From positions 130,030 to 194,029 of the forward strand of contig JAVBMG010000005.1 in NCBI GenBank assembly GCA_031552815.1: 64,000 nt of DNA, in the 5' to 3' direction. The notes beneath the pieces were generated by a model. It saw only the letters and a program-made list of their open reading frames with translations, was not told the DNA's origin and searched no databases. The first letter of the stretch is position 1. Every line of letters starts with the position of its first letter. The position numbers and the translations under genes were made by a program. Below are positions 1,563-62,718 of the stretch, piece by piece. This stretch comes from Opitutales bacterium (lineage in GTDB: Bacteria; Verrucomicrobiota; Verrucomicrobiia; Opitutales; JAVBMG01).

Positions 1563-1593
1563 GGTCGGTAGCGGATGCTACCGGCCTTTTTTT
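1563..1593 (+). terminator. Rho-independent terminator after the GH97-like gene
   Basis: Stem cggtagc (1566-1572) / gctaccg (1577-1583), loop ggat, then a T-run at 1587-1593. The arms are the recurrent GGTAGC/ATGCTACCG motif. Confidence 0.8.
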
Positions 1594-1700
1594 ATTCTGT
1601 TGCGACGCTGTTTCAGTAATGGCGGGCGACTTTCTCGGCTTGATTTCAGGCTTTTCGGATGTTTTAATCGTCCCCTTTCATTCAAGCATTTTCTCAAAAT

Positions 1701-2240
1701 ATGACAAAAGCCCTGACAGAGACGGAAGTAAAAAATCGAATTGAAAGCGGCGTGGTTTGTTCCCGGTTGGATGCGGTGGTCAATTGGGTGCGTGAGTGTT
1801 CCATGTGGCCGATGCCCATGGGATTGGCCTGTTGCGCCATCGAGCTGATGCACGTAGGGGGGTCGCGTTTTGACATTTCCCGTTTCGGAATGGAGGTGAT
1901 GCGTTTTTCCCCGCGCCAGTCCGATTGTCTGTTGGTCGCCGGGACGGTTACTTACAAGATGGCGGAGTCCGTGCGCCGTATTTATGACCAGATGGTGGAA
2001 CCCAAATGGGTGATTGCGATGGGCGCCTGCGCGTCCACGGGGGGTATGTACCGCAGTTATTCGACCTTGCAGGGCCTGGACAGGATTATCCCGGTGGATG
2101 TCTATATCAGCGGTTGTCCGCCGAGACCCGAGGCATTGCTCGACGGGTTGATGTCTTTGCAGAAAAAGATAGCCGGGGAGCGTTCGTTCAAGGGTATCCT
2201 TGACCGTGATTATGCTACCGGGAAACAGGAAACGGCATAA
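1701..2240 (+). CDS. nuoB: NADH-quinone oxidoreductase subunit B
   Basis: Cys motifs for cluster N2: [33 protein letters not shown]. It is the first gene of the operon. Confidence 0.95.
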
Positions 2241-2252
2241 ATTTGATGTCCC

Positions 2253-2882
2253 ATGATACCGTCTTTACTTTCCAAATATAATTTCCTGAAGGAACGGCCA
2301 AGCCTGGATTATCCGGCTTTTGATGTTCCGGTGAAGCATTTGCTCGAGCTGTGCGGATCGCTTAAGAATGAGTTCGGGTTTTCGCTTCTGTGCAATGTGA
2401 CCGCCATTGACTGGGATGTGAATACCAGTCCCCGTTTTACGGTTATTATCCATCTGTATTCGATCGAATACCGTACCTTTATCCGCCTCGCGGTAGCGTG
2501 TGAGTCCGACGAGTCGCCGGAACTGCCTTCCGTGACCAGGATATGGCCTGCGGCCGATTGGCATGAGCGCGAAACCTACGACTTGTTCGGTATCAGGTTT
2601 ACCGGGCATCCCGATTTGCGCCGTATCCTGATGTGGGATGGTTATCCGCATTATCCGTTACGCAAGGATTTTCCGTTGGCCGGAAAAGATGCCGAGTTCC
2701 CGTCCGAGGATATGCGTCAGCGCTTCAAGGAAGTGTGCACCGAGTATAACGCAAAGGTACGCCCGGTCCCGATGGCGGGCGGTCCGTTCACGGCTGCCCA
2801 GGCTTCCACGGCAGGCGACAGGGAGCCGCATTCGAGAGACCAGAGCTGGAGCGACAGGAAAATCAAACCAACAGAGGAATAA
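2253..2882 (+). CDS. nuoC: NADH-quinone oxidoreductase subunit C, with a roughly 60-aa C-terminal extension
   Basis: The ERETYDLFGIRFTGHPDLRRILM motif is typical of the NuoC/30 kDa subunit, and the gene sits between nuoB and nuoD. Confidence 0.9.
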   Translation: MIPSLLSKYNFLKERPSLDYPAFDVPVKHLLELCGSLKNEFGFSLLCNVTAIDWDVNTSPRFTVIIHLYSIEYRTFIRLAVACESDESPELPSVTRIWPAADWHERETYDLFGIRFTGHPDLRRILMWDGYPHYPLRKDFPLAGKDAEFPSEDMRQRFKEVCTEYNAKVRPVPMAGGPFTAAQASTAGDREPHSRDQSWSDRKIKPTEE

Positions 2883-2884
2883 AC

Positions 2885-4126: not shown

Positions 4127-4648
4127 ATGAATCTTTCGCAAAAAACACTCGATGCCATAGACGCCCTGATTCCGCGTTATCCTGAGAAGCGTAGCGCGAG
4201 CCTGGCCATCCTGCATCTGATACAGGAAGAATGCGGTTATGTCTCGCGCAGCCAGATGGAGTGGGTTGCCGATAAACTGGGCATGGAAGCCATTAACATC
4301 CTTGGCCTGGTGACCTTTTATCCGATGCTTCGCGAGGAACCGGCCGGAAAAATCCAGATCAAGGTGTGCCGTACGCTACCGTGTGCGTTGCGCGGCAGCA
4401 TCAAGACGGCCGAGCGCCTGCAGGAACTGATCGGCTGCAAGCTGAATGCGGTGAGCGAGGACGGCGTGTTTTCCCTGGAGTTTGTCGAATGCCAGGCCAA
4501 TTGCGGACGCGCTCCCGTTGTTGTGGTTGACCAAACCATGTACGAGGGCATCACCCCTGATGCTACCGTCGAACAATTTGCCGAGCAGATCAAGGCCCAG
4601 GCAAAGGGCGGCACGGTTGAAAACCCTATTCCCGGAACTCCTGCGTAA
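4127..4648 (+). CDS. nuoE: NADH-quinone oxidoreductase subunit E (2Fe-2S)
   Basis: Cys pattern CRTLPCALRG...CQANCGRAP and the position in the operon. Confidence 0.9.
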   Translation: MNLSQKTLDAIDALIPRYPEKRSASLAILHLIQEECGYVSRSQMEWVADKLGMEAINILGLVTFYPMLREEPAGKIQIKVCRTLPCALRGSIKTAERLQELIGCKLNAVSEDGVFSLEFVECQANCGRAPVVVVDQTMYEGITPDATVEQFAEQIKAQAKGGTVENPIPGTPA

Positions 4649-4663: not shown

Positions 4664-6004
4664 ATGGCAAAGGAACTCAGACTTATTTTCAAGCATATCG
4701 ATGCCGAGGGCTATACGAATGACATCGATTGTTATATGCGTAACGGCGGCTATTCGATTTTAACGAAGGCATTCGGCATGAAACCGGAAACGATTTGCCA
4801 GGAGGTGTTTGATTCCGGAGTGCGCGGCCGCGGCGGGGCAGGATTTTCCGCAGGATTGAAATGGAGATTTCTTGACCGGAAGTCAGGTAAACCGATTTAT
4901 CTGGTTGCCAACGCCGACGAATCGGAACCGGGCACATTCAAGGACCGCCAGATCATTTATAAAGACCCGCATCAGTTTATCGAGGGCCTGATGATTTCCG
5001 CTTACGGGATTCAGGCCAGGCAGGTGTTCGTTTATATTCGCGGCGAGATGTATGAGGGCGCACGCATCCTGAAACGGGCGATTGAGGAAGCCCGCGCGAA
5101 GCATTTTGTCGGTAACAACGTTTTGGGCAGTGATTATTCCTGTGATATCGTTGTCCACCGCGGTGCCGGAGCCTATATTTGCGGTGAGGAAACCGGATTG
5201 CTTCAGTCATTGGAAGGCAAGCGTCCGTATCCGCGCATTAAGCCGCCGTATTTTCCGGCAGTCCTTGGCCTGTACCAATGCCCGACCATCGTGAACAACG
5301 TGGAAACCATTTGTCACGTCAAGCATGTGATCGACATGGGCGGAAAAGAATACGCGAAGATCGGTACGGCAAATAATACCGGCACCCGTATCTGGGGGAT
5401 CTCCGGTCATGTGATGAAGCCGGGCTATTATGAATTTGCCTGCGGCGGCGTGACCTTGGGACAGTTGATTTATGATGTCTGCGGCGGTTTGCGCCCGGGC
5501 AGAAAGCTGAAGGCTGTCATCCCCGGCGGTTCTTCCTCGAAGGTCTTGAAAGCAGGAGAACGTTTCACGGGAAAGCTGCGCGACGGGACCGCGTTTGACT
5601 GGGGCCTGGAAGATATTCCGATGGATTTTGATTCGCTTGCGGCTGTCGGTAGCATGTCCGGTTCCGGCGGTGTCATTGTGATGGATGATTCGACCGACAG
5701 CGTGGAAGCCCTGGCCAACCTGAACGCATTTTACGCGCACGAAAGCTGCGGGCAATGCACGCCGTGCAGGGAAGGATGCCTCTGGATGAAAAAGATCACG
5801 GAACGCATGACACACGGGGAAGCGCATGCCGAGGATACCGCGCTGCTTCTGTCCGTGGCTGACCAGATTTGCGGACGTACGGTTTGCGCGTTTGGCGAGG
5901 CCGCCTCCTGGCCGGTTCAGGCCTTTATCGGAAAATTCCGCGAGGAGTTTGAAAACAAGGCAACGGGAGGGATCAATCCCAGCAAAGAATTTTCTCTGAT
6001 TTAA
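4664..6004 (+). CDS. nuoF: NADH-quinone oxidoreductase subunit F (FMN/NADH-binding, 4Fe-4S)
   Basis: GRGGAGFSAGLKW and ESCGQCTPCREG motifs. Confidence 0.95.
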   Translation: MAKELRLIFKHIDAEGYTNDIDCYMRNGGYSILTKAFGMKPETICQEVFDSGVRGRGGAGFSAGLKWRFLDRKSGKPIYLVANADESEPGTFKDRQIIYKDPHQFIEGLMISAYGIQARQVFVYIRGEMYEGARILKRAIEEARAKHFVGNNVLGSDYSCDIVVHRGAGAYICGEETGLLQSLEGKRPYPRIKPPYFPAVLGLYQCPTIVNNVETICHVKHVIDMGGKEYAKIGTANNTGTRIWGISGHVMKPGYYEFACGGVTLGQLIYDVCGGLRPGRKLKAVIPGGSSSKVLKAGERFTGKLRDGTAFDWGLEDIPMDFDSLAAVGSMSGSGGVIVMDDSTDSVEALANLNAFYAHESCGQCTPCREGCLWMKKITERMTHGEAHAEDTALLLSVADQICGRTVCAFGEAASWPVQAFIGKFREEFENKATGGINPSKEFSLI

Positions 6005-6028: not shown

Positions 6029-7699
6029 ATGAGCGATACAAACCTAATAACGATCAATATTGATGGTGCCGAAGCCAAGGTTCCGGCAGGCATCAACGCT
6101 ATTGAAGCGGCAAAGCGGTACGGGAAGGAAGTTCCACATTATTGTTATCATCCGCACCTCAAGGTCGCGGGAAGCTGCCGCATGTGCTTTATCGAGATGG
6201 GGACCCCTGCAAAGGATCCCAAGACGGGCGAGATGATGAAGAACGAAGACGGTAGCGCCAAGATCGCCTGGGCCCCGAGGCCTGTCATCGGATGTGCGAC
6301 AAACGTTTCTCCCGGAATGCACATCAGGACGAAGTCGTCCGCGATCGACAACTGCCGTGAAAGCGTGATGGAATTTTTACTGATTAATCACCCGCTTGAC
6401 TGTCCGATTTGCGACAAGGCCGGTGAATGTATGTTGCAGGAGCATGCTTCGGGCTATGGCCGGGGATGCAGCCGTTTTACCGAGAATAAGGTGGTAAAAC
6501 CGAAACGCACCGTGCTCGGTCCGCGCGTGATGCTTGACGACGAGCGTTGCGTATTGTGTTCCCGCTGTATCCGTTTTACCCGTGATGTTGCCGGCGAGGA
6601 TGTTCTCGGTTTTGTAAACCGTGGTTCGTATAATACCCTGACTTGTTATCCGGGACGCGAGCTTAATCACAATTACTCCCTGAATGTAACGGATATCTGT
6701 CCGGTGGGCGCGCTGACCAGCCGTGATTTCCGTTTCAGGATGCGTGTATGGTTCCTCAAGCGTACAAAAAGCATTTGCGCGGAAAGCAGTGTGGGTACAA
6801 ACACGGAGTTATGGAGCCGCGAAGGGGTCATTCACCGCATTACGCCGCGTGAAAACACGGCCGTCAATGATTCGTGGATGACGGACAGCGGGCGCGAATT
6901 ATATAAACAGGTCGATGCGCCCGGCCGTTTAAAAAACTATCTGTTGCGGGGTGCTCATGTTTCCGTAGAGGCTGCGGTAGAGGCAGCTGTTGCCTGCCTG
7001 AAAGCAGGGCATGTGGCGGTTGTCGGCAATGGCGGTGCTACCGTGGAGGAAGCCTACCTGCTCAAGCGTTTGGCTGATGCCACGAAGGCGAAAACTTTTT
7101 ATATGGCGCACCTGGATGAAGCCGACGGATTGCTTTTGTCGGAAGACCGTACGCCGAATGTGCGCGGCGCCTTGCTGGCCGGCCTGATCAAATCCTTGCC
7201 GGAAACATCGGCTGATTCCGTTGTCGGGGCTGTTTATTCGGGCGAGGTGAAAACGCTGGTGGTGTTCAATGAGGATATCGGCTCCAAGCTGGATAAATCC
7301 GCTTTGGACAACATCAATATCATTTACTTCGGTGATCAATGGAATGCTACCGCGGAGATGGCGACCATTGCTTTCCCGACAACGCTTGTCTTTGAAAAAA
7401 GCGGCAGTTTTGTGAATTACCAGTTCCGGCTCCAGCGATTTACGGAGGCCATACCCGCTCCCGCGGGCGTTCTGCATATGAGCGATGTGCTTTCGAGGTT
7501 ACTGGGTGCCTTTGGTCTGTTTGTTGACGGTCATTCCATGGCGGCTGTATGGAAACATCTTGCTGAAGAAATTCCTCAGTTTTCCGGAATTCGTTTCGAA
7601 TCAATCGGGGATCTTGGCGTTCCTGTCGACGGAAGCGCGTTCTCCGGTCTTGATTTTCCGGAAAAATCCAAGGGACTTCACTTTCCCGGAACCAAATGA
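6029..7699 (+). CDS. nuoG: NADH-quinone oxidoreductase subunit G, short form (556 aa)
   Basis: N-terminal 2Fe-2S (CYHPHLKVAGSCRMC) and HPLDCPICDKAGEC, CVLCSRCIRF and CPVGALT cluster motifs. The C-terminal molybdopterin-like region is shorter than in E. coli NuoG. Confidence 0.9.
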   Translation: MSDTNLITINIDGAEAKVPAGINAIEAAKRYGKEVPHYCYHPHLKVAGSCRMCFIEMGTPAKDPKTGEMMKNEDGSAKIAWAPRPVIGCATNVSPGMHIRTKSSAIDNCRESVMEFLLINHPLDCPICDKAGECMLQEHASGYGRGCSRFTENKVVKPKRTVLGPRVMLDDERCVLCSRCIRFTRDVAGEDVLGFVNRGSYNTLTCYPGRELNHNYSLNVTDICPVGALTSRDFRFRMRVWFLKRTKSICAESSVGTNTELWSREGVIHRITPRENTAVNDSWMTDSGRELYKQVDAPGRLKNYLLRGAHVSVEAAVEAAVACLKAGHVAVVGNGGATVEEAYLLKRLADATKAKTFYMAHLDEADGLLLSEDRTPNVRGALLAGLIKSLPETSADSVVGAVYSGEVKTLVVFNEDIGSKLDKSALDNINIIYFGDQWNATAEMATIAFPTTLVFEKSGSFVNYQFRLQRFTEAIPAPAGVLHMSDVLSRLLGAFGLFVDGHSMAAVWKHLAEEIPQFSGIRFESIGDLGVPVDGSAFSGLDFPEKSKGLHFPGTK

Positions 7700-9438: not shown

Positions 9439-9993
9439 ATGACAGAGTTCTTTTTCTTTTTGTTTGCAACCATGGTTATCGGTGGAGCCGCTAGCATGGT
9501 TTTGCAACGCAACTCACTGAACAGCGCGATGAGCATGATCGTGTCGCTGCTCGGCGTTGCCGGGATCTTTCTGCTGCTGGAGGCATACCTGCTTTCTGTC
9601 TTGCAGATTGTTGTCTATGCAGGGGCCGTGATGGTTCTGATCCTGTTCATCGTCATGCTGATGGACGTCGACTCGCAGGCGAAAAAAGCAGTCAGGATGT
9701 GCCGCGTGCTTGCCGGCCTGTTTTTCTTTGCCCTCCTGGTTGCCGCCGGTGCTTACGTGTTAAAGACATGCGGATACCTGAATCTGACCGAAGGTAAAAT
9801 GGCAACGGTGTCCGAGGGCTCGGCAGTGGAATACAGCACGGGACTGAAAGAATACGGGTATCTGTTGTTTTCCAAATACATGCTGGTTTTCCAGACGGTA
9901 GCATTCCTGCTTTTTGCTGCAATGGTCGGAGTGATTGTTATCAGCAAGAAGTACGTGGCCGAAGAGGACGCAAACAAGGAGGAAATAAAATGA
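9439..9993 (+). CDS. nuoJ: NADH-quinone oxidoreductase subunit J
   Basis: Hydrophobic ND6-like protein at the expected operon position. Its stop overlaps the nuoK start (ATGA). Confidence 0.85.
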
Positions 9994-10297: not shown

Positions 10298-12319
10298 ATG
10301 GATATCACAGTTACTCACATTTTATTGGCCATTTTGCTGACTCCGTTGGCAGCAGCGGCTCTGATTGCCTGCTTTTGCCGTCAGAGAGGACTTTTGGCTT
10401 CCCTGGTTTCCGTGGCATCCGCGGGTGTACAGATGGGACTCTGCCTGTATTTGTTCTACAAGGTGTTGCCTGGCACTGCCGCTGTTCCGGAAGTGAACTG
10501 GAACTGGTTGCGTTTCGGTAATTTCTCGCTTGATCTCGGCTATTCGCTTACTTCACAGACAAGCCTGATGCTGCTCGTCGTCACGTTTGTCGGTTTCTGG
10601 ATTCATGTGTTTGCGATGGGATACATGCGGGAGGATGAAAATCGCGGCCGTTTCTTTGGCGGCATGAGTATCTTTATGTTCTCAATGACGGGTATCGTGC
10701 TTTCGAACAACCTGTTCATGATGTTTATCTTCTGGGAACTTGTGGGTTTCAGTTCTTACATGCTGATCGGGCATTACCTGACAAAACCGTCTGCTGCGGC
10801 AGCGGCAAAAAAGGCCTTTATCGTGAACCGTGTCGGCGACTTCGGTTTTCTTCTGGGAATCATCCTTTGCTACTGGTTGTTCGGAACCACGAACTTCAGT
10901 GTCATGTTGTCAAAGATCACGAATGTTTCCCTTGCGAATTTCGAGATGCTTCAGGTAGCGGCTCTGCTTCTTTTCTGCGGCGTTCTCGGAAAGTCCGCCC
11001 AGATGCCTTTGCATGTCTGGTTGCCTGACGCGATGGAAGGTCCTACGCCGATTTCCGCGTTGATACACGCGGCGACGATGGTCGCGGCGGGAGTTTATCT
11101 TCTGGGAAAACTGGCATTCCTCTATTCGGTTGCCCAGTATACGGTTATTGACGGTCAAAATGTGATGACCGGGGTGCCGTATGCAGCAAACGTGGTTGCA
11201 GCCGTCGGTGTCACCACAGCCGTGTATGCGGCTTTCTGTGCTCTCGGTGTCAACGACATCAAAAAGATCCTGGCATATTCGACTCTTTCCCAACTCGGTT
11301 ACATGGTGGCCGCTTTCGGTATCGGCTGTACTTTGACGACGAGTTTCAACGATCCGCGTATCATGGGTGTCATGGTCAGGCCGGAATTGCATGCGGCTTA
11401 TGGTACCGCCGCTTCCATGTTCCATCTGACGACACACGCCTTCTTCAAGGCGTTGCTGTTCCTCGGTGCGGGTTCGGTGATTTATGCCTGCCACCATGAA
11501 CAGGATATTTTCAAGATGGGCGGGTTGTGGAAAAAGATGCCGATAACGACGTTGACCTTCCTGGTCGGTGTACTGGCTATTTCCGGTATCCCTTATCTCT
11601 CGGGTTTTTACAGTAAGGACAATATCCTGGCAGTGGCCTATGTCGGTTCGCCGGTAGCATTCGGATTATTGGTGATGACTGCTTTCCTGACCGCGTTTTA
11701 CATGATGCGTCTGTTCTTTATTGCTTTCCTGGGTAGTCCGAAATCGCATTCGTCAGAGCATGCGCGTGAGAACGGAGTCATCATGGTGCTGCCGTTGATT
11801 GTCTTGTCGGTTTTGGCGGTGATCGGCGGTTTCTATTGGCTTTATCCGAAAATGGCCCGCTCCCTGTTTGAAAAGCACATGCTGCCGCATGACCTGATGG
11901 CTTCGGTATTTGAAGGTCTTCCCGTCAAGGCGACACACATGGATTTTGTGATGGCGGTTTCAATTGCCTGCGGTGTGTGCGGATTGTTCGGCGGATGGAT
12001 GATTTACAGACGGGGTCCGAAGGAAGACATGCTGAACAAGAAGGCTCCTTCGATTTACAAATTCCTTTCAAAGAAGCTCTGGTTTGACGAAATTTATAAC
12101 TATTACGTTGCCAAGATACAGGACCGATTTGCTTCACTGCTGGGTTTCCTGGATATGTTGCTTATCGGCGGCTTGATGGTGCGCGGTATTGCGGGTATTG
12201 CGGCTGCGTGCAGCATGAGTTTGCGCTTACTGCATGTCGGACGTGTAACAGCCTATGTTTACTGGTTTGCCTTCGGCTTGCTGGTTTACTGGGCTCTAGC
12301 TTCAGGATGGTTGAAATAA
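10298..12319 (+). CDS. nuoL: NADH-quinone oxidoreductase subunit L
   Basis: 673-aa antiporter-like subunit with WELVGFSSYMLIGH and GKSAQMPLHVWLPDAMEGPTPISALIHAATMV motifs. Confidence 0.95.
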   Translation: MDITVTHILLAILLTPLAAAALIACFCRQRGLLASLVSVASAGVQMGLCLYLFYKVLPGTAAVPEVNWNWLRFGNFSLDLGYSLTSQTSLMLLVVTFVGFWIHVFAMGYMREDENRGRFFGGMSIFMFSMTGIVLSNNLFMMFIFWELVGFSSYMLIGHYLTKPSAAAAAKKAFIVNRVGDFGFLLGIILCYWLFGTTNFSVMLSKITNVSLANFEMLQVAALLLFCGVLGKSAQMPLHVWLPDAMEGPTPISALIHAATMVAAGVYLLGKLAFLYSVAQYTVIDGQNVMTGVPYAANVVAAVGVTTAVYAAFCALGVNDIKKILAYSTLSQLGYMVAAFGIGCTLTTSFNDPRIMGVMVRPELHAAYGTAASMFHLTTHAFFKALLFLGAGSVIYACHHEQDIFKMGGLWKKMPITTLTFLVGVLAISGIPYLSGFYSKDNILAVAYVGSPVAFGLLVMTAFLTAFYMMRLFFIAFLGSPKSHSSEHARENGVIMVLPLIVLSVLAVIGGFYWLYPKMARSLFEKHMLPHDLMASVFEGLPVKATHMDFVMAVSIACGVCGLFGGWMIYRRGPKEDMLNKKAPSIYKFLSKKLWFDEIYNYYVAKIQDRFASLLGFLDMLLIGGLMVRGIAGIAAACSMSLRLLHVGRVTAYVYWFAFGLLVYWALASGWLK

Positions 12320-49837: not shown

Positions 49838-49890
49838 TGTGAGGACAGTTCCTGTTTTGGCAATAATTTCCATTTAAATACATAAAATCA

Positions 49891-51796: not shown

Positions 51797-52681
51797 ATGA
51801 AGGTTATCTTAGCACAGAGTGCCGGGTTTTGCTGGGGAGTTGAACGGGCGATCAAGAAAGCCGTTGATTTTGCCGAGGGAGGCCATTATCCGGTGTATAC
51901 GGACGGTCCCTTGATCCACAACAAGCAGATGATAAATCGTCTGGAAAACATGGGTGTCCGGGAAATCGGGGACTATGTGAATGAGGGCGAATTTAAGGCC
52001 GACAAGGATCAATCCGAAAAATCAATACTTCTTGTCCGGGCGCATGGTATTTCTCCCGACCGCCGCGCTTATCTGAAAAATCTGGGCATCAAGTTTTCGG
52101 ATGCTACCTGTCCCGATGTTAATTTCATTGCCGGAAAAATCAGGACTTATGCCAAGAAAGGTTATACGACTATTATTTTTGGCGACGCAAAGCATCCGGA
52201 AGTCATTGGTTTGCTGGGATATACGGAAGGTAAGGGGTATGCCGTGGAATCAAGGGCAGATGTGGACAAACTGCCCAAGATTGAAGATGCCATTGTTTTT
52301 GTTTCGCAATCAACCATGTTTACGGATGAATTCGATGAACTGGCGATCTATCTGAAGGAGATATATCCGGAGGTGATTGTCTTCGATACGATCTGTAAGG
52401 CGACAAAGGAACGGCAAAACGATTTGGTGAGATTGGTACAGATGGGTGTGGATGCCATCGTGGTCATAGGAGGTTTACATTCTGCGAATACCGTTAAACT
52501 GGCTAAATTGGCCAGAAAACAAAACCTACCTACTTATCACATTGAGACTGCGGATGAAATTGATGAAGCATCTATGGCTCAATATGCCACCGTTGGCGTG
52601 ACCGCTGGGGCTTCAACTCCGAAATTTATCATTGATGCCGTGTGCAAACGCTTGGAAGCGATACAGCCTGAAATGAAATAG
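51797..52681 (+). CDS. ispH: 4-hydroxy-3-methylbut-2-enyl diphosphate reductase
   Basis: AGFCWGVERAI, TCPDV and the SANTVKL motif near the C-terminus. I prefer the ATG at 51797 over the TTG at 51788. Confidence 0.9.
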   Translation: MKVILAQSAGFCWGVERAIKKAVDFAEGGHYPVYTDGPLIHNKQMINRLENMGVREIGDYVNEGEFKADKDQSEKSILLVRAHGISPDRRAYLKNLGIKFSDATCPDVNFIAGKIRTYAKKGYTTIIFGDAKHPEVIGLLGYTEGKGYAVESRADVDKLPKIEDAIVFVSQSTMFTDEFDELAIYLKEIYPEVIVFDTICKATKERQNDLVRLVQMGVDAIVVIGGLHSANTVKLAKLARKQNLPTYHIETADEIDEASMAQYATVGVTAGASTPKFIIDAVCKRLEAIQPEMK

Positions 52682-54465: not shown

Positions 54466-57255
54466 TTAATTAGGTTTTATCGCCTCTAGTGCTTCGTTGC
54501 AGCGAGGACAGCATGATCCTTCATGAAGATCCTGAATCCAGCGCCAGCAACGCGGACAACGAACGCCATCCGCTTTTTGGGCGGTGACGGTAATGGATGG
54601 TGTTTCCTTGGTCTCATTGATGGAAACCTGGGAAACAATGAAAAATTCTTCAAGTAATTCCGCGTGTTTTTTGAGGATGGCAAAAAGCGGATCACTCATG
54701 CTACCGCTGATTGTTACCTTTGCGTCCAGGGATTGTCCGATGATTTTCTCCTGCCGGAGTGTTTCCAGTTGTTCATTGACGCGATCACGGAAGCCGAGGA
54801 TTTGTTCAATCTCGCTTACAGTGGCTTCATTAAACCAGGATTTATCTGCCTGTGCAAAATCTTCCAATAGAATACTGTTGCCGATGAAGTCCTTCTCGCT
54901 TTTTGCGAAGGAAAAAACTTCATCCGCAGTAAACGGAAGAATAGGCGCAATCAGTTTAATCAATTGTTCGAAAATAATGTCGATTGCCGTCTGTGATGAA
55001 CGGCGTAACGGATGGTTCGGAGCAAGCGTGTAGAGCCGGTCTTTCAGTATGGTGTGGTAAACGGCTGAAAGTGTGCTGGTACAGAACCGGTTGATCGCCT
55101 GATAAACCTTGTGAAATTCATAATTGTCATAGGCTTGCGTGCATTCTTCGATCAATGAGGCTGTATATTTCAATGCCCATTGGTCGATGGGGCTAAGCCT
55201 GTCACAGGCTACCGCATCCTTCGCGGTAAAATCATAAAGATTGCTGAGCTGGAAACGCAGCGTATTGCGGATGGTGCGATAGGCTTGAGCGATATGATTC
55301 AGGATTTCATCGGAAATCGGAATGTCCATCCGGTAATCCTCAGAGGCAAGCCAGAGACGGATGATATCGGCGCCGTACTTGTTGACGTAAAGATCGGCAG
55401 TCAACGGCTTTCCGTCACTTTTAGAAATCTTTTTACCGTCTTGTCCGACAATAAACCCGTGGGTGATGATTTGTTTATACGGGGCGGATTTGTCGGCTAC
55501 GACAGCCGTCCAGAGAGAAGATTGGAACCATCCCCGGTGTTGGTCGCTCCCTTCGAGATAGAGGTCTGCCGGCCAACGGAGGTTTTGCTTATTCTGTAAA
55601 ACCGCACGGTGGCTGCAACCTGAATCAATCCATACGTCGAGCGTGTCGGTTCCTTTTTTAAGGAGCTCGGCATTCCATGTTTTGGGGAGTGTGATTCCCG
55701 AAAGGATTTCCTGTGCGGATTGTTCGAACCAGATATTTGTTCCGGCTTTTTCAACCTTGTCGGCAATGGCATTGATAACGGTAGCATCAACGTAAACTTC
55801 CTTGTTGTCGTCGTAGAAAACAGGAATCGGAACGCCCCAAGCGCGTTGGCGTGAAATACACCAGTCGGGACGGGTTTCCACCGCGCCGCGAATGCGGTTT
55901 TCGCCGAATGCAGGAATAAATTTAACTTTTGAAATTTCCTCCAATGCCTTGGCGCGGGTTCCGTTTTTATCAAGGGAGACAAACCATTGGTCCATTGCAC
56001 GGAAGATGACGGGAGTCTTTGAGCGCCAGCAGTGAGGATAGGAATGCGTTATTTTCTTCAGTTGCAGCAATGCTCCTTTTTGTGTGAGCATTTCAAGAAC
56101 CTTTTTGTTGGCTGCGGAACCTTTTTCGGTTTCAAGCACACTTACGCCGACAAGTTCGCCGGGAACCTGACAATCGTCGAGATAGCAACCCGCGTCGTCC
56201 AGCGGGGAATAAATGTCCAAACCGTACTTGAGGCCTGTCTGGTAGTCTTCGACACCATGACCGGGAGCTGTGTGCACGCATCCTGTTCCGGAATCGGCGG
56301 TGACATAGTCGGCGAGAACCACAAGGCTTTGTCTGTCAATGAAAGGATGGAGCGCCTTGATGTATTCAAAGGAGCGGCCGGAATGCTTGTTCGTAATGGT
56401 CGCATTTTCCAGTTTGCAATCCTTGATAAAGGATTCGGCAAGTGTTTCGGCAACCATGTACGATTCATTGCCGCACTCGATTTCCACGTAGGTGAATTCC
56501 GGATTGACAGCGATGCCAAGGTTTGCCGGCAGCGTCCAGGGCGTGGTTGTCCAGATGACAAAGAAAACACTTTTGTCAGTGCGGAATTTTTTTTCCCCGG
56601 GTGCTATTGCAAATTTCACCCAGATGGACGGGCTTGCAATTTCCTTATATTCGATTTCCGCTTCGGCAAGCGCGGTAGCGCAGGGAATAGACCAGTAGAC
56701 AGGTTTTTTGCTGCGATAAACGATGTCCTGTTCAACAAACTTGGCAAACGTGCGGAGGATGACCGCTTCGTATGCAGGGTTCATGGTACGGTATTCGTTT
56801 TCCCAGTCGGCAAGCACTCCGAGACGTTTGAACTGTCCGCGCTGCTTTTCAATGTAGCTTTTGGAAAAGGCTGCGCAGGCCTCGCGCAGCTCCGCTGTGC
56901 TGAGTACTTTCTTTTCCTCCTGGAGCTGGCGGGAAACTTTGTGTTCGATCGGTAATCCGTGACAATCCCAGCCAGGTATGTACGGAGAATGGAATCCGCG
57001 CATTCCCTTGTACTTTAAAATAATGTCCTTGAGGATTTTGTTGAGAGCCGTTCCGATGTGAACGTCGCCGTTGGTGAACGGAGGGCCGTCATGAAGGACG
57101 AATGTCTCGCCTTTGGCATTCTTGCTTTGAATCTTTGCATACAGATTTAGACTCTCCCAATGCTTAATTCGTTCCGGCTCACGCTTTACGAGGTCACCGC
57201 GCATCGGGAAACCGGTTTTCGGAAGGTTCAAGGTATCTTTTAAATCTGTTGCCAT
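54466..57255 (-). CDS. ileS: Isoleucine--tRNA ligase
   Basis: 929 aa with class I HIGH (PFTNGDVHIGT) and KMSKS (KISKS) motifs and C-terminal zinc-binding Cys pairs (CPRCWRW...CCPRC). Confidence 0.97.
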   Translation of the reverse strand: MATDLKDTLNLPKTGFPMRGDLVKREPERIKHWESLNLYAKIQSKNAKGETFVLHDGPPFTNGDVHIGTALNKILKDIILKYKGMRGFHSPYIPGWDCHGLPIEHKVSRQLQEEKKVLSTAELREACAAFSKSYIEKQRGQFKRLGVLADWENEYRTMNPAYEAVILRTFAKFVEQDIVYRSKKPVYWSIPCATALAEAEIEYKEIASPSIWVKFAIAPGEKKFRTDKSVFFVIWTTTPWTLPANLGIAVNPEFTYVEIECGNESYMVAETLAESFIKDCKLENATITNKHSGRSFEYIKALHPFIDRQSLVVLADYVTADSGTGCVHTAPGHGVEDYQTGLKYGLDIYSPLDDAGCYLDDCQVPGELVGVSVLETEKGSAANKKVLEMLTQKGALLQLKKITHSYPHCWRSKTPVIFRAMDQWFVSLDKNGTRAKALEEISKVKFIPAFGENRIRGAVETRPDWCISRQRAWGVPIPVFYDDNKEVYVDATVINAIADKVEKAGTNIWFEQSAQEILSGITLPKTWNAELLKKGTDTLDVWIDSGCSHRAVLQNKQNLRWPADLYLEGSDQHRGWFQSSLWTAVVADKSAPYKQIITHGFIVGQDGKKISKSDGKPLTADLYVNKYGADIIRLWLASEDYRMDIPISDEILNHIAQAYRTIRNTLRFQLSNLYDFTAKDAVACDRLSPIDQWALKYTASLIEECTQAYDNYEFHKVYQAINRFCTSTLSAVYHTILKDRLYTLAPNHPLRRSSQTAIDIIFEQLIKLIAPILPFTADEVFSFAKSEKDFIGNSILLEDFAQADKSWFNEATVSEIEQILGFRDRVNEQLETLRQEKIIGQSLDAKVTISGSMSDPLFAILKKHAELLEEFFIVSQVSINETKETPSITVTAQKADGVRCPRCWRWIQDLHEGSCCPRCNEALEAIKPN

Positions 57256-57541: not shown

Positions 57542-60262
57542 ATGCCAACATTTCTCTGTATTCTCTGTATTTTCGTTTTGGTCTCATTCATCATGGTTTT
57601 GATAGACCGTTCCCGTTTGAATAAAGCGGAAGAGCGCATTAAGTTATTGGAAAAGGAACTCAATTGGCTGAAACGTTCCTCTGCTGACTCTGTCGGAGCA
57701 AAAACCGGAGAGGAGTCGACTAAGCCTGGACAACCCGTTAAAACGGAAACAGAAAAGACGGTTCAGACTCCTGGACCTGCGATGGTTCCTGCGGCTCCTA
57801 TGCAGGCAATTTCACCGGAACCTACGATCAGTCAAAAGGTGGATCCGGTGGATCAACAGGAAGCAAAAACGGAAGCGATTGCTGAAACACGGTCCGAGAT
57901 AGTGCCCGAACCGTTGCCTGCTCCCGTACAGCCCAACCGGCAGCCTGAACCGCAAAAGACATATGAACCGCGGATCAAGGATCGAAAACCGGTTGCGGAG
58001 GAAGATTGGGCCTTTGGCGCTCTTCTGCGGCAATGGAAGATATTACCGCCTGAAGATTACGGAAACAGTGAGATCGGGCTTATGCAGTGGTGGCTGCCCC
58101 GTATCGGCGGATTGCTTGCGGTTCTGACCCTGATCTTTTTCGGAGTCTGGGCGAGTCAGGGCACGCCTCCCTGGGTGAAATTCTGTGAAATGCTTGGCGC
58201 CACATTGGCGGTGATCGGATTGGGGGCGTGGTTTGTCAAAAGGCATTCCAATGTCGGCGAATCCTTGCTTGCTTCGGGGCTGGTGATGCTTTACGTGGAC
58301 GCGATGGCTGCCTACATGCTACCGCCTGTTCGCGTGATTGAGAATCCCATGATTGGGTTGTTGGTCCAGTTTATCGCGCTTACGCCGACACTGTTTGTCG
58401 GCTGGCGGAGACGGTCCATGAACTACCTCATAACCGGCCAGGTCTTTGCGTTTGTCAGTTCATATTTTGCCATCCGTGAGGGAATGGGCTATGCGGCGCT
58501 TGTTTCAGCGATGCTGCCGTATGTCTTGGGTTTTGTCGCATTCCGGCGTGTGCCGAAAACAGCGTTAATCGCCGTTGGCTGCATCGGCGTATATTTACCG
58601 CTTTGGGCATTGGCGGTTCAGATTCATGATTCCGGTCATGGGTTCTATGTTCCGGATGCGACCGTCTGGGGAGCCTTTGTTTTCTTTGCGGTGGTGGTGT
58701 CGGTGATGCCGCTTTTGTTTTTCCTGCGAGGAAAGTCTTACTTTTCCGATTCGCGCAGTGAGTGTTTCTGGCAGATATGGAACAGCTCAAATGCGTTGCT
58801 CTCAATGTATTTCCTGTGTGAAAACCTGGATCGATCTTCCTTCTTCTCGCTTAAGATTTTCTATGCAGTGGCAGCCGTTTTGTTTCTTTCGTGGGCTGCG
58901 CTTTTTGCGAAGCGTGATTTTCGGGGATTTCATTTCCAGTTGTTTTTCCTTAAGGGAAGCACGTTGCTTTCGTTGTTTTTGATCAATCATTTTCACGGGA
59001 ATTATCTCTGGGCTACCTTGCTTGGCCAATTTGTGGCCTTTGTCTGGACGGCCCGCCGGACTGAAAGTAAGTGGATCAACGGATTCACGGTAGCATCATT
59101 CATGCTTGCTTCATTTTACTGGTCTAATTCCGTCGAATTGCTTGATGTGGAGGATTGGATGAGTTCAGACTGGTGGATCCTGTGTGTTTTCCCTTGGTTG
59201 GGAGCCGGGGCGGTCGCATGGTTCCTGAAAAAATACATCACCGAAGCCTGGGCGATCGTGTTTGCTGTATTTGCCGGGGTTTCCATTTATGCGCAGACAT
59301 TTGTCATGGGATTGAATGTCAGCGTTTACCGTGAATTTGTTTTATTGGCAGCCATATTCCTCTCGCTTGCCTGGATTGTTCTCCCGTGGCTTGAGAGACG
59401 CTTTTCGCTTATCATGACCGGTGTTTTCTTTGTGGTTGCACACATAAATTTCTGGGTTATGTGTTCTGATACGGATATCGGGATTGCAAGGCATTTGGAG
59501 GTGTTTCCCGGGCAGAATACGGTATTTTGGCTGGTACTTTCAGCCTTTTCGTTGGGGATTGTTTTTGTTCTGAAACGATTCAGTTCAAGGTTATCTTCCG
59601 GTCAGCATTATGCCGCCGATTGTGTCACGATGACGTTGCTCAGCATATCAACCTTGGTTTGGCTGGCGACTTACACAGACAGTGCGCTTGTCAGTGAATT
59701 TTCGGCAGCGTGGATGATTCTTTTGGCATTGGTGCTTCTGGCGGCAGGAAAGCGAATCTCCCTGTCGTCCGGCGATATTTCCATCGGCATATTGCCTTTT
59801 GTCATTTGGTCTGTCTCCAATAACGAATTTTCCGAAAGAGCATTTATTACTGTGGCGGTGCTGACGGTAACATGGATGCTCTTACCGATTTGCGTGAAAG
59901 GATTCAGTAACGGATTCGTTAAATTGAAGGATAATGCGTTATGGAAATGGGCGCTGCCTGTCGGGGGATACATTATTATGGCGGGCGTATTGGTGAATTA
60001 TCCGTTTGATCTGGAACAGTATTTTACATGGCTTTTCTCGCTTACCTCGCTTGTGTTGATAGTCGCAGGCATTATTCGCAAGGTGAGACCGTACCGTATT
60101 GTCGGGCTGATAACGTTGGGATTGTCTGTTATCCGGCTCTTTGTCTTTGACATAGAAAAAACAGCTACGCGTATCATAGCGTTTGCGGTGTTGTCCGTGA
60201 TACTGATTTTTCTCGGTTATCTTTACGGGAAATTCAGGCATTACCTTGAAGATGAAGTGTGA
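57542..60262 (+). CDS. DUF2339-like large polytopic membrane protein
   Basis: N-terminal helix, a short coiled-coil (RIKLLEKELNWLKR), a Pro/Glu-rich linker, then more than 20 hydrophobic helices. This architecture matches DUF2339 as I recall it. Confidence 0.55.
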   Translation: MPTFLCILCIFVLVSFIMVLIDRSRLNKAEERIKLLEKELNWLKRSSADSVGAKTGEESTKPGQPVKTETEKTVQTPGPAMVPAAPMQAISPEPTISQKVDPVDQQEAKTEAIAETRSEIVPEPLPAPVQPNRQPEPQKTYEPRIKDRKPVAEEDWAFGALLRQWKILPPEDYGNSEIGLMQWWLPRIGGLLAVLTLIFFGVWASQGTPPWVKFCEMLGATLAVIGLGAWFVKRHSNVGESLLASGLVMLYVDAMAAYMLPPVRVIENPMIGLLVQFIALTPTLFVGWRRRSMNYLITGQVFAFVSSYFAIREGMGYAALVSAMLPYVLGFVAFRRVPKTALIAVGCIGVYLPLWALAVQIHDSGHGFYVPDATVWGAFVFFAVVVSVMPLLFFLRGKSYFSDSRSECFWQIWNSSNALLSMYFLCENLDRSSFFSLKIFYAVAAVLFLSWAALFAKRDFRGFHFQLFFLKGSTLLSLFLINHFHGNYLWATLLGQFVAFVWTARRTESKWINGFTVASFMLASFYWSNSVELLDVEDWMSSDWWILCVFPWLGAGAVAWFLKKYITEAWAIVFAVFAGVSIYAQTFVMGLNVSVYREFVLLAAIFLSLAWIVLPWLERRFSLIMTGVFFVVAHINFWVMCSDTDIGIARHLEVFPGQNTVFWLVLSAFSLGIVFVLKRFSSRLSSGQHYAADCVTMTLLSISTLVWLATYTDSALVSEFSAAWMILLALVLLAAGKRISLSSGDISIGILPFVIWSVSNNEFSERAFITVAVLTVTWMLLPICVKGFSNGFVKLKDNALWKWALPVGGYIIMAGVLVNYPFDLEQYFTWLFSLTSLVLIVAGIIRKVRPYRIVGLITLGLSVIRLFVFDIEKTATRIIAFAVLSVILIFLGYLYGKFRHYLEDEV

Positions 60263-60363
60263 TGTTACCGTTTGACGGGTCTCGGAATGGTTATTTTTCT
60301 CTCAGAGGTTGACGGGCATCGGCTTTTTTGTTTCACTTGTTACGAACTCTTAATTGAAAAAAT

Positions 60364-60807
60364 ATGAGCGAAAAAGCTATCTCGATTTATTATGCTACGG
60401 AAACCGGAAACTCCGAAGACCTTGCCAACCGCACAGGCGAAAAGCTTAAGGGTCTTGGTTTCAGTGTGAAAGTTGAAAATGTCAGCGATGTTGCTGCCGA
60501 TTCACTGGCCGAAGGCGGCAAAATGATTTTCGTTGTTTCCACCTGGGGCGACGGCGAACCTCCGTTTTCCGCGGAAGATTTCGGTAATGCGGTAATCAAC
60601 GGTAACGCGGATCTGAGCAAGATTGATTTCTGCGTATTGGCTCTTGGTGATTCAGGATATGACGATTTCTGCGGATTCGGACGTAAGCTTGAAGAGGCCA
60701 TTGTTCGTCAGGGAGGAAAAACATTCCTGGCACGCAAGGATCTGGATATCGACTTTGAAGATGATTACCAGAAATGGGCGGAAGAATTGGCAGGAAAGCT
60801 CCAGTAA
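60364..60807 (+). CDS. Short-chain flavodoxin
   Basis: ISIYYATETGNSEDLA (FMN phosphate loop) and VVSTWGDGEPP motifs. Confidence 0.8.
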   Translation: MSEKAISIYYATETGNSEDLANRTGEKLKGLGFSVKVENVSDVAADSLAEGGKMIFVVSTWGDGEPPFSAEDFGNAVINGNADLSKIDFCVLALGDSGYDDFCGFGRKLEEAIVRQGGKTFLARKDLDIDFEDDYQKWAEELAGKLQ

Positions 60808-60827
60808 ACAGTTTTTAAAGGCAAAAG

Positions 60828-60852
60828 GACGCGGATTACCGCGTCTTTTTTT
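60828..60852 (+). terminator. Rho-independent terminator after the flavodoxin gene (overlaps the 3' end of the convergent ABC ATPase gene)
   Basis: gacgcgg (60828-60834) / ccgcgtc (60839-60845), T-run 60846-60852. Confidence 0.75.
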
Positions 60853-61642
60853 GTGCTCTGATTTCCTTCGGATAGATGCCGAGGGTGACGTATCCGTATT
60901 GGCTTGAAACCTGTTTTTCCGTTGCCACATGAAAAGCGTCTGCAACCCGTTCAGGTGATAAACAGTCTTCAACTTTGCCGGTAGCATGAATGCTGCCGTT
61001 CATTAACATGATTGCATAGTCGGCGAAGTGGTAGGCCAGGTTCAGATCATGAACAACCGCCAGAATCGTAACACCCTTATGCTTCAGTTCCCGGATGGTG
61101 TGGAGGCAGGCAAACTGATGCTCGATATCGAGGTTTGAGGTTGGTTCATCAAGAATAAGGCAACCTGCCGGATTATCCAGTCCGCCCAGTTGCATCAGTG
61201 CGCGCGCCAGTAAAACGCGCTGTTTCTCGCCCGAGGAAAGCAGCGGATAGAGACGGCTTCTGATGGAAGCGATATCCATCGCTTCCAGCACCGCATTGAG
61301 TTCGGTTAATGCGTCCCGTTTGAAACGGTGAGCATTCGGCTCCATTCCGAAGCGGACCACTTCTTCTACGGTGAAAGCAAACGGGAGGCTGCTCTCCTGC
61401 AAGACGACAGCACGTTTTTCCGCCAGTGTTTCCGTATCCCATGTCTGCAACGGCCGGTTGTCGAAAGTAATGCTGCCGCCGTGCGGCGTAATCAATCCCG
61501 TCATTATTTTCAGCAAGGTTGATTTTCCGGCACCGTTGTTACCGACGATCACGGTAAAATGATCGCGCGGAACAGTAAAGCTCACGTCCTTTAATATTTC
61601 GGTGCCGTCAGGCTGAAAATGAATATTGGATACCTGAAACAT
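60836..61642 (-). CDS. ABC transporter ATP-binding protein, iron-chelate/haem/B12 (FecE/HmuV) type
   Basis: Walker A GNNGAGKSTLL, signature LSSGEKQRVLLARAL, Walker B ILDEPTSNLD. It is paired with a FecCD permease. Confidence 0.85.
   Translation of the reverse strand: MFQVSNIHFQPDGTEILKDVSFTVPRDHFTVIVGNNGAGKSTLLKIMTGLITPHGGSITFDNRPLQTWDTETLAEKRAVVLQESSLPFAFTVEEVVRFGMEPNAHRFKRDALTELNAVLEAMDIASIRSRLYPLLSSGEKQRVLLARALMQLGGLDNPAGCLILDEPTSNLDIEHQFACLHTIRELKHKGVTILAVVHDLNLAYHFADYAIMLMNGSIHATGKVEDCLSPERVADAFHVATEKQVSSQYGYVTLGIYPKEIRAQKKTR
60979..60998. repeat. Inverted motif pair inside a coding region
   Basis: cggtagcat (60979-60987) ga atgctgccg (60990-60998). The same imperfect palindrome forms the proS terminator at 17023-17047. 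Confidence 0.85.
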
Positions 61643-61647
61643 GGCGG

Positions 61648-62718
61648 TTAAAAGAGGAATTTTTTCCGTGAACCGTAAAGCAGAAACAAAAAGAAAGGCG
61701 CGCCGATCAGTGATGTCAGAATACCGATAGGCATTTCCTGCCCCAGATTAAGCTGTCGGCAAACCCAGTCGGCTACCAGCAGTAATCCGGCGCCCATGAT
61801 GGCCGAGCCGGGCAAAAGGTAACGGTGATTCGGGCCGACCCAGATACGCACTAGGTGAGGAACCACCAGACCGACAAAGCTGATGATACCGACAAGCGAA
61901 ACGCAGGCGGAAATCATGAGGGAAACCAGCAGGATAATAACTGTTTTCAGCCGATGGATATTTACTCCGAGATGGTAGGCTTCGGCTTCGCCGAAAAGCA
62001 GCAGGTTCAATGGTTTGACAAAGAAAATCAATGCTACCGCCGGAATCAGGACAAACGGAAGGAGGACGAGAACGATCTGGTTATTGGCTTGCGCAAAACT
62101 GCCTAATGACCAGAAGACAAAAGAGCGCAATGACTGGTCGGATGCTACCGTGATCATCATCGCGATGATACCGCTCGCAAAGGCATTGATCGCTATACCC
62201 GTGAGCAGCAAATGCGTGATGTCGGCATTGCCGTGCCGGCTGGCCAATTTGAAAACAAAAGCCGTTGCGATCAGTCCGCCCAGAAATCCGGCAAGCGGGA
62301 AAAACCAGAGTCCGAGCGTATTCAGCCAGGCAAAACAAGCGCTTCCGCTTAAGATCATTCCGAGAAGCGTGGCGATGGCGGAACCGGCGGAAACCCCGAT
62401 AAGGCTCGGTTCTGCAAGCGGGTTTCTGAACAGAGCCTGCACCAATACGCCGGAAAGTCCGAGCGCAAACCCTACCAGTACAGCCAGACAGGCCCGGGGA
62501 AAACGGATTTGCCAGAGTACCGTGGAAATCAATTCAAAACGATCCTGGTCTTCTGCATTGGCGGAACACCCGAGGCGGTGTGTGAACTGTTGCCAAAGGT
62601 CACCCATGTCAAGATTGATGACACCGCCAAGCAGCGAAAGCACGAAGAGGCATAACAGGAAAAACACGGATAGGTATATCCGGCCTAAAGCATGCTTTCT
62701 TGTCGGGATCAGTTTCAT
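61648..62718 (-). CDS. FecCD-family (BtuC/HmuU-like) ABC permease
   Basis: About 9-10 helices with motifs RFPRACLAVLVGFALGLSGVLVQALFRNPLAEPSLIGVS and GPNHRYLLPGSA. Confidence 0.85.
   Translation of the reverse strand: MKLIPTRKHALGRIYLSVFFLLCLFVLSLLGGVINLDMGDLWQQFTHRLGCSANAEDQDRFELISTVLWQIRFPRACLAVLVGFALGLSGVLVQALFRNPLAEPSLIGVSAGSAIATLLGMILSGSACFAWLNTLGLWFFPLAGFLGGLIATAFVFKLASRHGNADITHLLLTGIAINAFASGIIAMMITVASDQSLRSFVFWSLGSFAQANNQIVLVLLPFVLIPAVALIFFVKPLNLLLFGEAEAYHLGVNIHRLKTVIILLVSLMISACVSLVGIISFVGLVVPHLVRIWVGPNHRYLLPGSAIMGAGLLLVADWVCRQLNLGQEMPIGILTSLIGAPFFLFLLYGSRKKFLF

Follow-up and report, generated by a model that had tools for sequence, protein, structure and literature searches.

A hyper-abundant, DNA-uptake-sequence-like word in an Opitutales genome segment

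In the literature searched, descriptions of DNA uptake enhancing sequences (DUES) are confined to two proteobacterial families, the Neisseriaceae and the Pasteurellaceae (bioRxiv 10.1101/2025.10.24.684340). The uptake signal sequence (USS) of the latter and the DNA uptake sequence (DUS) of the former occur in 1,471 and 1,892 copies per genome, respectively (PMC2817400), and arguments on the origin of such words (drive versus selection, conservative sex, receptor evolution) are limited by this two-family base. Here, the 9-mer CGGTAGCAT is described, which is dispersed over a stretch of 64 kb (the window) from an Opitutales bacterium (Verrucomicrobiota; GCA_031552815.1, contig JAVBMG010000005.1, positions 130,030 to 194,029) with an excess in the same range as that of USS and DUS. 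An initial annotation had proposed this word as a DUS-like signal of a kind not established in bacteria of the Planctomycetes-Verrucomicrobia-Chlamydiae (PVC) group. The observation was confirmed and is stronger than first noted, and the literature searched describes no such signal for Verrucomicrobia or the PVC group. In full texts, the word strings were matched by primers only.

Abundance and anatomy of the word

Independent Logan contigs (run SRR23967709) added 8.3 kb to the left end of the window and 8.7 kb to its right end, so that 81 kb of the genome were covered; the Logan assemblies also reproduce the window sequence. Dinucleotide-preserving shuffles and an order-3 Markov model were used as nulls. 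Markov models of order ≥ 5 'explain' the count of CGGTAGCAT because the sub-words are themselves the motif, and hence they are not a valid null. The window contains 36 exact copies of CGGTAGCAT (22 on the + strand, 14 on the - strand), compared to a mean of 0.28 in the shuffles, none of which held more than 2, and 1.0 under the order-3 Markov model. For the 8-mer GGTAGCAT, 37 copies were counted versus 0.8 expected; the sole copy without the 5' C (52101-52108, -, in ispH/lytB) reads AGGTAGCAT. The density is kept outside the window, where the flanks add 4 copies on the left and 8 on the right, resulting in 48 copies in 81 kb (0.59 per kb; mean spacing one per 1.7 kb) versus 0.35-1.4 expected. 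The excess is 34-137-fold in the 81 kb, in which CGGTAGCAT is the top-ranked 9-mer and 12/12 top 9-mers are the word, one-base extensions of it or two variants. The positions given in the initial annotation were all correct but two: the copy placed at 62041 starts at 62031, and the 8-mer placed at 49797 starts at 49798.

Aligned copies carry G at -2 (27/44), a purine at -1 (37/44) and any base except A at +10 (41/44), which gives the full motif G-R-CGGTAGCAT-B. The extension by G-R claimed previously was recounted and holds, GACGGTAGCAT being present 10 times and GGCGGTAGCAT 7 times in the window. Beyond -2 to +10, no flank sequence is shared among the copies and copy length is uniform, in agreement with the earlier statement that these are no remnants of miniature inverted-repeat transposable elements (MITEs) or insertion sequences. 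The word is non-palindromic, so its orientation is defined; it differs from its complement ATGCTACCG and is self-complementary only at alternate positions of ACGGTAGCAT.

Among the 27 single-base variants counted, only CGGCAGCAT and CGGTAACAT are strongly enriched, with 15 copies each versus 1.65 and 0.85 expected (9-18-fold), and near-miss variants are not depleted. The tolerated changes are transitions at positions 4 (T>C) and 6 (G>A) only. Since both variants retain the purine at -1, the family can be written R-CGG-Y-A-R-CAT. Part of the CGGCAGCAT count may come from GCN-periodic coding sequence; this variant is strand-biased (3:12). The variant CGGTAACAT and the core are unevenly mixed, with 1 versus 18 core copies in the GC-richer nuo region (1-22000) and 14 versus 18 in 22001-64000 (Fisher p = 0.004), for which composition, expression or two dialects are possibilities. 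At position +22, i.e., 13 nt 3' of the word, a weak preference for pyrimidines was seen (34/44 for the core, 24/33 for the two variants), which may be a distal contact, chance or a codon effect.

Placement in genes, intergenic DNA and strands

Gene-based counts refer to 61 called genes and to the 44 word copies with gene calls. The coding fraction is 93%, with 70% of the coding sequence on the + strand, and 6.6% of the DNA is non-coding; 84% of the 44 copies are genic. Sense copies are read as xCG GTA GCA Txx (11 copies) or xxC GGT AGC ATx (10 copies), antisense copies as xAT GCT ACC Gxx (12 copies), ATG CTA CCG (3 copies) or in the third antisense frame (1 copy), and 7 copies are intergenic. 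Because five frames on both strands are occupied (5/5 stop-free frames, the sole empty frame holding the stop TAG), no single peptide lies behind the word, and the force acts on the DNA word and not on a peptide. The same had been argued earlier from 'at least two reading frames', which is correct as to several frames being used but is an undercount. Rare codons (CTA, 2% of Leu codons; GTA, 15% of Val codons) and changed residues at word sites also speak for selection or drive on the DNA word. The same frame and proteome pattern was described for USS and DUS by Findlay & Redfield (PMC2817400).

In the four frames, in the order given above, the word is present in 11/25, 10/17, 12/17 and 3/8 of those peptide contexts which could encode it synonymously, where codon usage predicts 0.22, 0.40, 0.57 and 0.07 sites; 44-71% of encodable contexts spell the word versus 1-3% expected. 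The word-less contexts found (14, 7 and 5) are close to the number predicted from amino-acid frequencies (roughly 10, 7 and 5 by a hand estimate), which suggests that the word itself gave rise to most of the peptides that carry it, on top of the expected number. Long word-free stretches hold no encodable context. One such stretch of 6.9 kb (rho-pilB-pilB-pilC) has neither a copy of CGGTAGCAT nor a peptide context able to spell the word; at 42983-49791, rho is followed by genes for two tandem PilB/GspE-type ATPases with MshEN domains and by a PilC/GspF platform gene.

Coordinates of single copies are given with strand and encoded peptide. In the frame xCG GTA GCA Txx, sense copies lie in nuoJ (9896-9904, +, TVAF), nuoL (11652-11660, +, PVAF), nuoM (13383-13391, +, SVAL), twice in nuoN (14371-14379, +, TVAF; 14947-14955, +, TVAW), and in genes for an ArsP_1/SO_0444-type permease (17372-17380, -, AVAW), a hypothetical protein (18994-19002, -, TVAL), an EamA transporter (28661-28669, -, TVAF), a hypothetical protein of 906 aa (59088-59096, +, TVAS) and, twice, a FecCD permease (62031-62039, -, AVAL; 62142-62150, -, TVAS). 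The frame xxC GGT AGC ATx is used in nuoF (5647-5655, +, VGSM), a DFP/CoaB-like gene (19588-19596, +, GGSM), a histidine kinase gene (20815-20823, +, GGSM), a HEAT/3-keto-disaccharide-hydrolase gene (35575-35583, +, DGSI), coaE (42906-42914, +, DGSI), clpP (51342-51350, +, GGSI) and ileS (54698-54706, -, SGSM).

Antisense copies in the frame xAT GCT ACC Gxx were found in nuoB (2212-2220, -, YATG), nuoE (4560-4568, -, DATV), nuoG (7344-7352, -, NATA), the histidine kinase gene (20226-20234, -, NATA), clpB (27713-27721, +, YATA), the HEAT/3-keto-disaccharide-hydrolase gene (33564-33572, -, HATV), coaE (42677-42685, -, NATA), ileS (55779-55787, +, DATV) and, as a direct pair, in ftsK (41351-41359, +, NATV; 41369-41377, +, DATA). 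A further copy in this frame lies in an ABC ATPase gene (60979-60987, +, HATG) and forms an inverted pair, CCGGTAGCATgaATGCTGCCG, with the variant CGGCAGCAT at 60990-60998 (-). The peptide MLP with the rare Leu codon CTA is encoded in a NIF3 gene (21686-21694, +, antisense) and in the 906-aa hypothetical gene (58316-58324, -, antisense).

The nine word sites in the nuo genes were aligned to three orthologous operons. At 3/9 sites the peptide is conserved and the orthologues use other codons, as in nuoF (5647) and nuoM (13383), and at 6/9 sites the residues differ from the orthologues. Such differences were seen in nuoG; in nuoJ, where TVAF is replaced by VSGF, VTGF or ITGF; in nuoL, where the position is variable; and at the second site of nuoN, where E/D stands in place of A. 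In nuoE (4559-4570), also one of the six, the word-encoded D-A-T-V is one residue longer than the three orthologues, which may be an example of the word altering protein length.

Intergenic copies amount to 7/44 (16%) versus 6.6% non-coding DNA (p = 0.024), and those reported previously were verified at 1575, 17024, 18196, 37871 and 49797. Two of them build intrinsic terminators, and no other terminator-like hairpin in the first 20 kb is as strong as these. The stronger one (1560-1589, +) follows the GH97 gene and has a 13-pair stem and a T-run, the copy at 1575-1583 (-) forming its loop and 3' arm. The other one (17021-17049, +) follows proS and has a 12-pair stem with a G·U-compatible arm and a T-run; it consists of an inverted pair, ACGGTAGCATgaaagATGCTGCCGTTTTTT, of the core at 17024-17032 (+; 5' arm) and the variant CGGCAGCAT at 17038-17046 (-). 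Three further copies are located at most 10 nt from separate strong terminators, two of them past tRNA genes: one just past the terminator of tRNA-Asp (18196-18204, +), one 6 nt past that of tRNA-Ser (37871-37879, +) and one after the pilC-like gene (49797-49805, +) with a strong terminator directly 3' (49806-49838). Behind both tRNA genes (tRNA-Asp, 18260-18336, -; tRNA-Ser, 37736-37823, +) there is a strong terminator, and one word copy comes within the next 10-15 nt. The terminator association claimed initially is borne out in part: two copies build and three adjoin a terminator, a link that is real but much weaker than in Neisseria, and the 37 genic copies have no hairpin tendency. In 61-mers centred on the motif, folding did not exceed that of the background (p = 0.09). 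An element of the hairpin, repetitive extragenic palindrome or MITE type was ruled out by the unrelated flanks outside -2 to +10, by the folding result and by 84% of the copies being genic. At 66801, i.e., 2801 nt past the window end (locus L082), ACGGTAGCAT...ATGCTATTGT forms an 11-pair hairpin without T-run upstream of an ABC-F gene; its 3' arm is a doubly transitioned, G·U-compatible copy of the word.

Within the 81 kb, 31 copies are on the + and 17 on the - strand (65% +). Tested against an even split (0.5), this gives p = 0.06; the share of 0.55 predicted from base composition gives p = 0.19, and a Chi-like share of 0.75 gives p = 0.07. When the two variants are added, the split is 45:40. 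The GC skew is positive throughout, so the + strand is presumably the leading strand. Polarity of the type seen in FtsK-orienting polar sequences (KOPS) was ruled out, the word having a skew of 65%, a frequency of one per 1.7 kb and no G-richness; a mildly polar signal is formally still compatible with these counts. Hence, the absence of strand bias stated initially holds with respect to KOPS-type polarity, but a modest + lean remains. Regular spacing is unsupported (coefficient of variation 0.82; Kolmogorov-Smirnov p = 0.17), and long gaps fit a Poisson distribution.

The variant CGGTAACAT occurs within genes at 20343-20351 (-, with the purine at -1), 34512-34520 (+, sense, AVTL), 50685-50693 (+, sense, TVTC) and 59865-59873 (+, sense, TVTW), in clpB (27070-27078, -, sense, AGNM), in a TPR gene (39437-39445, +, antisense, MLP), twice in ftsK (39967-39975, -, sense, GGNM; 41296-41304, -, sense, RGNI) and in a pseudouridine synthase gene (63173-63181, -, sense, HGNM). 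Intergenic copies lie within the terminator hairpin GGGCGGTAACATGCCGCCCTTTTTTT (22825-22833, +), upstream of clpB (28022-28030, +), at 29120-29128 (-) and before tRNA-Ser (37641-37649, -), and one copy is at the 3' end of the 906-aa gene or intergenic (60262-60270, -). At 63628-63636 (+), the complement reads ATGTTACCG and encodes the first residues (M-L-P) of the pseudouridine synthase. As the complement of the word opens with ATG, it supplies the start codon and Leu-Pro in two genes, namely this one and, 5273 nt past the window end (L082), a TonB-dependent receptor gene starting with ATGCTACCG.

Word-less relatives and a related word in other Opitutales

The top NuoL matches of the window belong to Opitutales, Puniceicoccaceae and Coraliomargarita. 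Because these best matches are only 52-56% identical, the source is an isolated Verrucomicrobiota lineage near Opitutales. An identical NuoL was met once, on an NCBI contig of 208 kb, and in Logan; identical ClpB and IleS proteins were looked up without a match, probably owing to different start codons. The syntenic nuo loci of three Opitutales/Puniceicoccales genomes (L084, L086, L087) contain 0 copies of CGGTAGCAT and no comparable word, and a fourth genome also contains 0. In 80 unrelated loci from a ClpB search (1.3 Mb in total; from other phyla, the protein being too conserved), 3 copies were found, which is at or below chance. A metagenome scan for inverted pairs of core and variant gave no locus with more than 3 copies among the at least 120 loci listed, i.e., chance hairpins; 23 viral contigs scanned in the same way gave chance hairpins only, and no other carrier of CGGTAGCAT was found. 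Within these comparisons, the word behaves as lineage-specific.

Three further loci (L232, L233, L235) were reached via homologues of the 906-aa hypothetical protein. L235, a genome of 4.85 Mb, has no hyper-abundant word. L232 (1-21995; Ca. Spyradosoma sp., GCA_051884495.1, GC 66%) and L233 (1-22574; an Opitutales metagenome-assembled genome (MAG), ENA ERZ28653896 scaffold_72, GC 53%) contain 68 and 67 copies of CGGGAACG, respectively, each in about 22 kb (3 per kb), compared to 0.053 per kb in the other loci (2.46 Mb). These two carriers of R-CGGGAACG share 41% identity in an orthologous protein and are 13 GC points apart. A purine precedes this word at -1, all six frames are occupied, and the strands are balanced (34:34 and 33:34; 67:68 overall, n = 135). 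In L233, 30% of the copies are located in the 9.6% non-coding DNA, and many lie in bidirectional terminators composed of an A-run, an inverted pair and a T-run, e.g., AAAAAAAAGCGTTCCCGTTCGCGGGAACGCTTTTTTT. At least 5 inverted-pair terminators were found in L233 (e.g., 3806/3818, 1601/1617, 13787/13808 and 19229/19247), and L232 has one, e.g., at 15740/15758; this is the textbook arrangement of DUS and USS. In the shared gene of the two loci, 2 of about 10 CGGGAACG sites are positionally conserved, both on conserved peptides. A comparison of L233 with L234 for polymorphism at word sites was uninformative, the contigs being identical.

Substitutions in CGGGAACG are again most tolerated at positions 4 and 6. 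R-CGG-G-A-A-C-G and R-CGG-T-A-G-C-AT differ at positions 4 and 6 and in the 3' tail only, the hard positions R-CGG-n-A-n-C being common to both; from the sequences, the two words look like dialects of one recognition system.

A (pro)phage contig (L256, 1-12294; IMGVR_UViG_3300019820_000004), with terminase, portal, tail and baseplate genes according to PHROGs, carries CGGGAACG 20 times (1.6 per kb, about half the host density; 5 on the +, 15 on the - strand) within structural genes and in one terminator pair (1772/1792); thus, a mobile element of these hosts shares the host word. Two other IMG/VR contigs with a GC of about 33% (L292, 6272-8890; L310, 1200-3650) contain repeated ACGGGAACGGGAAC(GGGA) boxes on one strand only; these resemble regulatory repeats of phages and seem to have no relation to the word in Opitutales. 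In Verrucomicrobia bacterium UBA6775 (L061, 1-8634; DKGH01000171.1), and also in L054, a hyper-abundant palindrome CTTGGCCAAG(CG) resembles the highly iterated palindrome HIP1; in the 8.6 kb of L061, TTGGCCAA occurs 12 times between unrelated flanks, and clpB contains several of these copies.

Assembly genes of a type IV pilus or type II secretion system (T2SS) are represented in the window by two PilB-like ATPases and one PilC-like protein. In the part of the genome covered, i.e., the window and its 17 kb of flanks, no pilin, ComEA, ComEC or DprA gene was found. The PilC of the window is 22% identical to the T2SSF protein of L232, i.e., a paralogous system uninformative on relatedness.

Possible readers of the word and known systems

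The best explanation, with a probability of about 0.5, is that GRCGGTAGCAT(B) marks self DNA in the manner of a DNA uptake sequence and has clade dialects. Double-stranded DNA carrying the word would be bound by a receptor on the cell surface, for which analogy suggests one of the minor pilins of a type IV pilus, and conspecific fragments would be preferentially taken up and recombined. Word-creating mutations would be over-transmitted between cells (molecular drive), with protein function filtering where the word persists. In this way, the word would accumulate in both orientations, in all stop-free frames, at synonymous sites or where conservation is poor, and between genes next to or within terminators, and R-CGGGAACG of the two other Opitutales lineages would be a further dialect of the same recognition system. 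Among the known systems, the DUS/USS class proposed by the initial annotation fits best because of the length of the word, its extreme excess, the near neutrality of its orientation, the frames used, the permissive placement, the lineage specificity, the dialect-like variation and the terminator pairs of the relatives; the initial reading is partly supported. From this fit we infer that uptake machinery may be the reader, that the organism may be naturally transformable and that the word may spread by drive.

Several points weigh against uptake as the function. The + strand lean (65%, p = 0.06, n = 48 in 81 kb) could be real. Only 2/48 copies are in terminators and 84% of 44 are genic, versus about half of DUES in terminators in a survey of 177 genomes (bioRxiv 10.1101/2025.10.24.684340). 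With 5-6 of 8 positions alike, the two words could resemble each other by coincidence. The relatives' word in a (pro)phage is unexpected for a pure uptake tag and fits an intracellular reader at least as well. PilB and PilC genes are generic, the literature searched gives no uptake or transformation data for any Verrucomicrobiota, and no close relative is present in the databases (next NuoL 55% identical).

The word could instead be read inside the cell by a DNA-tracking machine with sites throughout the genome, as a Chi-like signal for RecBCD/AddAB, as a tag that tells a nuclease or defence system which DNA is self, or as the site of a nucleoid-organising protein, with selection keeping its density; this is considered unlikely. 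In E. coli, Chi is in excess about 7-fold, versus 34-137-fold here. Chi and KOPS, too, are short words in excess, with sequences that differ from phylum to phylum (PMC3384302), host Chi is known to build up in phages (PMC3784561), and the (pro)phage contig L256 has the relatives' word in its structural genes with a skew of 15:5. The hard positions common to the two words would point to a conserved protein as their reader, though not necessarily to a pilin. With 31:17, the window word favours the leading strand, but this does not differ from the compositional expectation (p = 0.19), the split becomes 45:40 with the variants, and the relatives' word is balanced (67:68), whereas Chi and KOPS are significantly skewed to the leading strand (KOPS about 90% near dif) and KOPS occur at about one per 10 kb (PMC3384302), far below the 0.6-3 per kb of these words. 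Moreover, the window word is not G-rich. In a more specific form, which we rate as rather unlikely, a clade-wide Opitutales word family R-CGG-n-A-n-C (GRCGGTAGCAT here, RCGGGAACG in Ca. Spyradosoma-like MAGs) would be read by an intracellular system for self/foreign DNA and not by an uptake apparatus. Such a reader would explain the word in terminase, portal and tail genes of the hosts' (pro)phage and would amount to a new class of orientation-neutral, non-palindromic genome signature system.

Still more doubtful is a by-product, with no function that depends on a reader, of a neutral or selfish process at the DNA level, for instance sequence-biased repair (mismatch or very-short-patch) or biased gene conversion tied to a methyltransferase, which would make the word a non-palindromic counterpart of HIP1. 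The word overrides codon preference and alters amino acids, as drive would, and resident prophage DNA would gain it passively. The palindrome of L061 is likewise hyper-abundant within genes. The repair-linked biases known to us act on short palindromic methylation sites, whereas this word spans about 12 nt and is no palindrome. Repair of this kind should convert near-miss variants, but these are not depleted and two of them are enriched (9-18-fold), and the same word is kept across lineages as distant as L232 and L233. HIP1, which is 15-300-fold over-represented within genes and was seen here in cyanobacterial loci, is itself argued to be under selection and not replenished by repair (PMC5861425). 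An artefact of protein coding, codon bias, a dispersed repeat or a mobile element, to which the 84% genic share and the resemblance of the strand-biased CGGCAGCAT (3:12) to GCN-periodic coding sequence might point, is effectively refuted by the five frames on both strands, the rare codons, the seven intergenic copies, the unrelated flanks, the uniform copy length, a null expectation of ≤ 1 and the agreement of the independent Logan assemblies.

If the word is an uptake signal, it would represent a third, independent family in a distant phylum, with at least two dialects over lineages 13 GC points apart, and would provide an independent test of uptake-sequence theories. Gut and environmental Verrucomicrobiota, which to our knowledge have few genetic tools, would then be predicted to undergo natural transformation, and the word would permit a comparative hunt for the receptor among genes of word-bearing versus wordless Opitutales. 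If the reader is not uptake machinery, the words would mark a genome-wide recognition system of a hitherto unknown kind. In addition, they serve as species fingerprints for binning and for linking phages to hosts.

Compared with described systems, the word shares its shortness, excess and taxon specificity with Chi, KOPS and architecture imparting sequences (AIMS), which are read by a protein that tracks along DNA. It differs in its much larger excess, that of Chi being modest, and in its skew (65%, n = 48; relatives' word 50%, n = 135), whereas the former have a marked skew to the leading strand and the polar KOPS/AIMS type is a G-rich octamer, at least 80-90% on the leading strand and about one per 10-40 kb (PMC3384302). 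HIP1 of cyanobacteria (GCGATCGC) is alike in hyper-abundance, dispersal in and between genes, action at the DNA level and the lack of an experimentally established function (PMC5861425), but is a perfect palindrome tied to methylation sites.

The DUS of Neisseriaceae (AT-GCCGTCTGAA and dialects) differs in its genic share of about a third in Neisseria (PMC2817400), in the location of about half of its copies in terminators (bioRxiv 10.1101/2025.10.24.684340), versus 2/48 here, and in having the defined receptor ComP in Neisseria. The likenesses are a lineage-specific word of 10-12 nt whose inner core is conserved and whose dialect positions vary, the share of several per cent that the word takes up in the genome, and, in the CGGGAACG-bearing relatives, inverted pairs with A- and T-runs as bidirectional terminators. 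The USS of Pasteurellaceae (Hin-type AAGTGCGGT, Apl-type ACAAGCGGT) is unrelated in sequence and belongs to another phylum; it is backed by uptake bias and a competence regulon, has about 0.8 copies per kb versus 0.6 here and is flanked by AT-rich tracts which the present word lacks. Both have a non-palindromic core of 9 nt with weaker flank preferences, an excess of the order of 100-fold, copies in both orientations and several frames, and a mostly genic location (65% in H. influenzae, PMC2817400, versus 84% here). They also agree in favouring poorly conserved residues, in inflating the encoded tripeptides, in occasional terminators from inverted pairs and in related dialects with a common hard sub-core.

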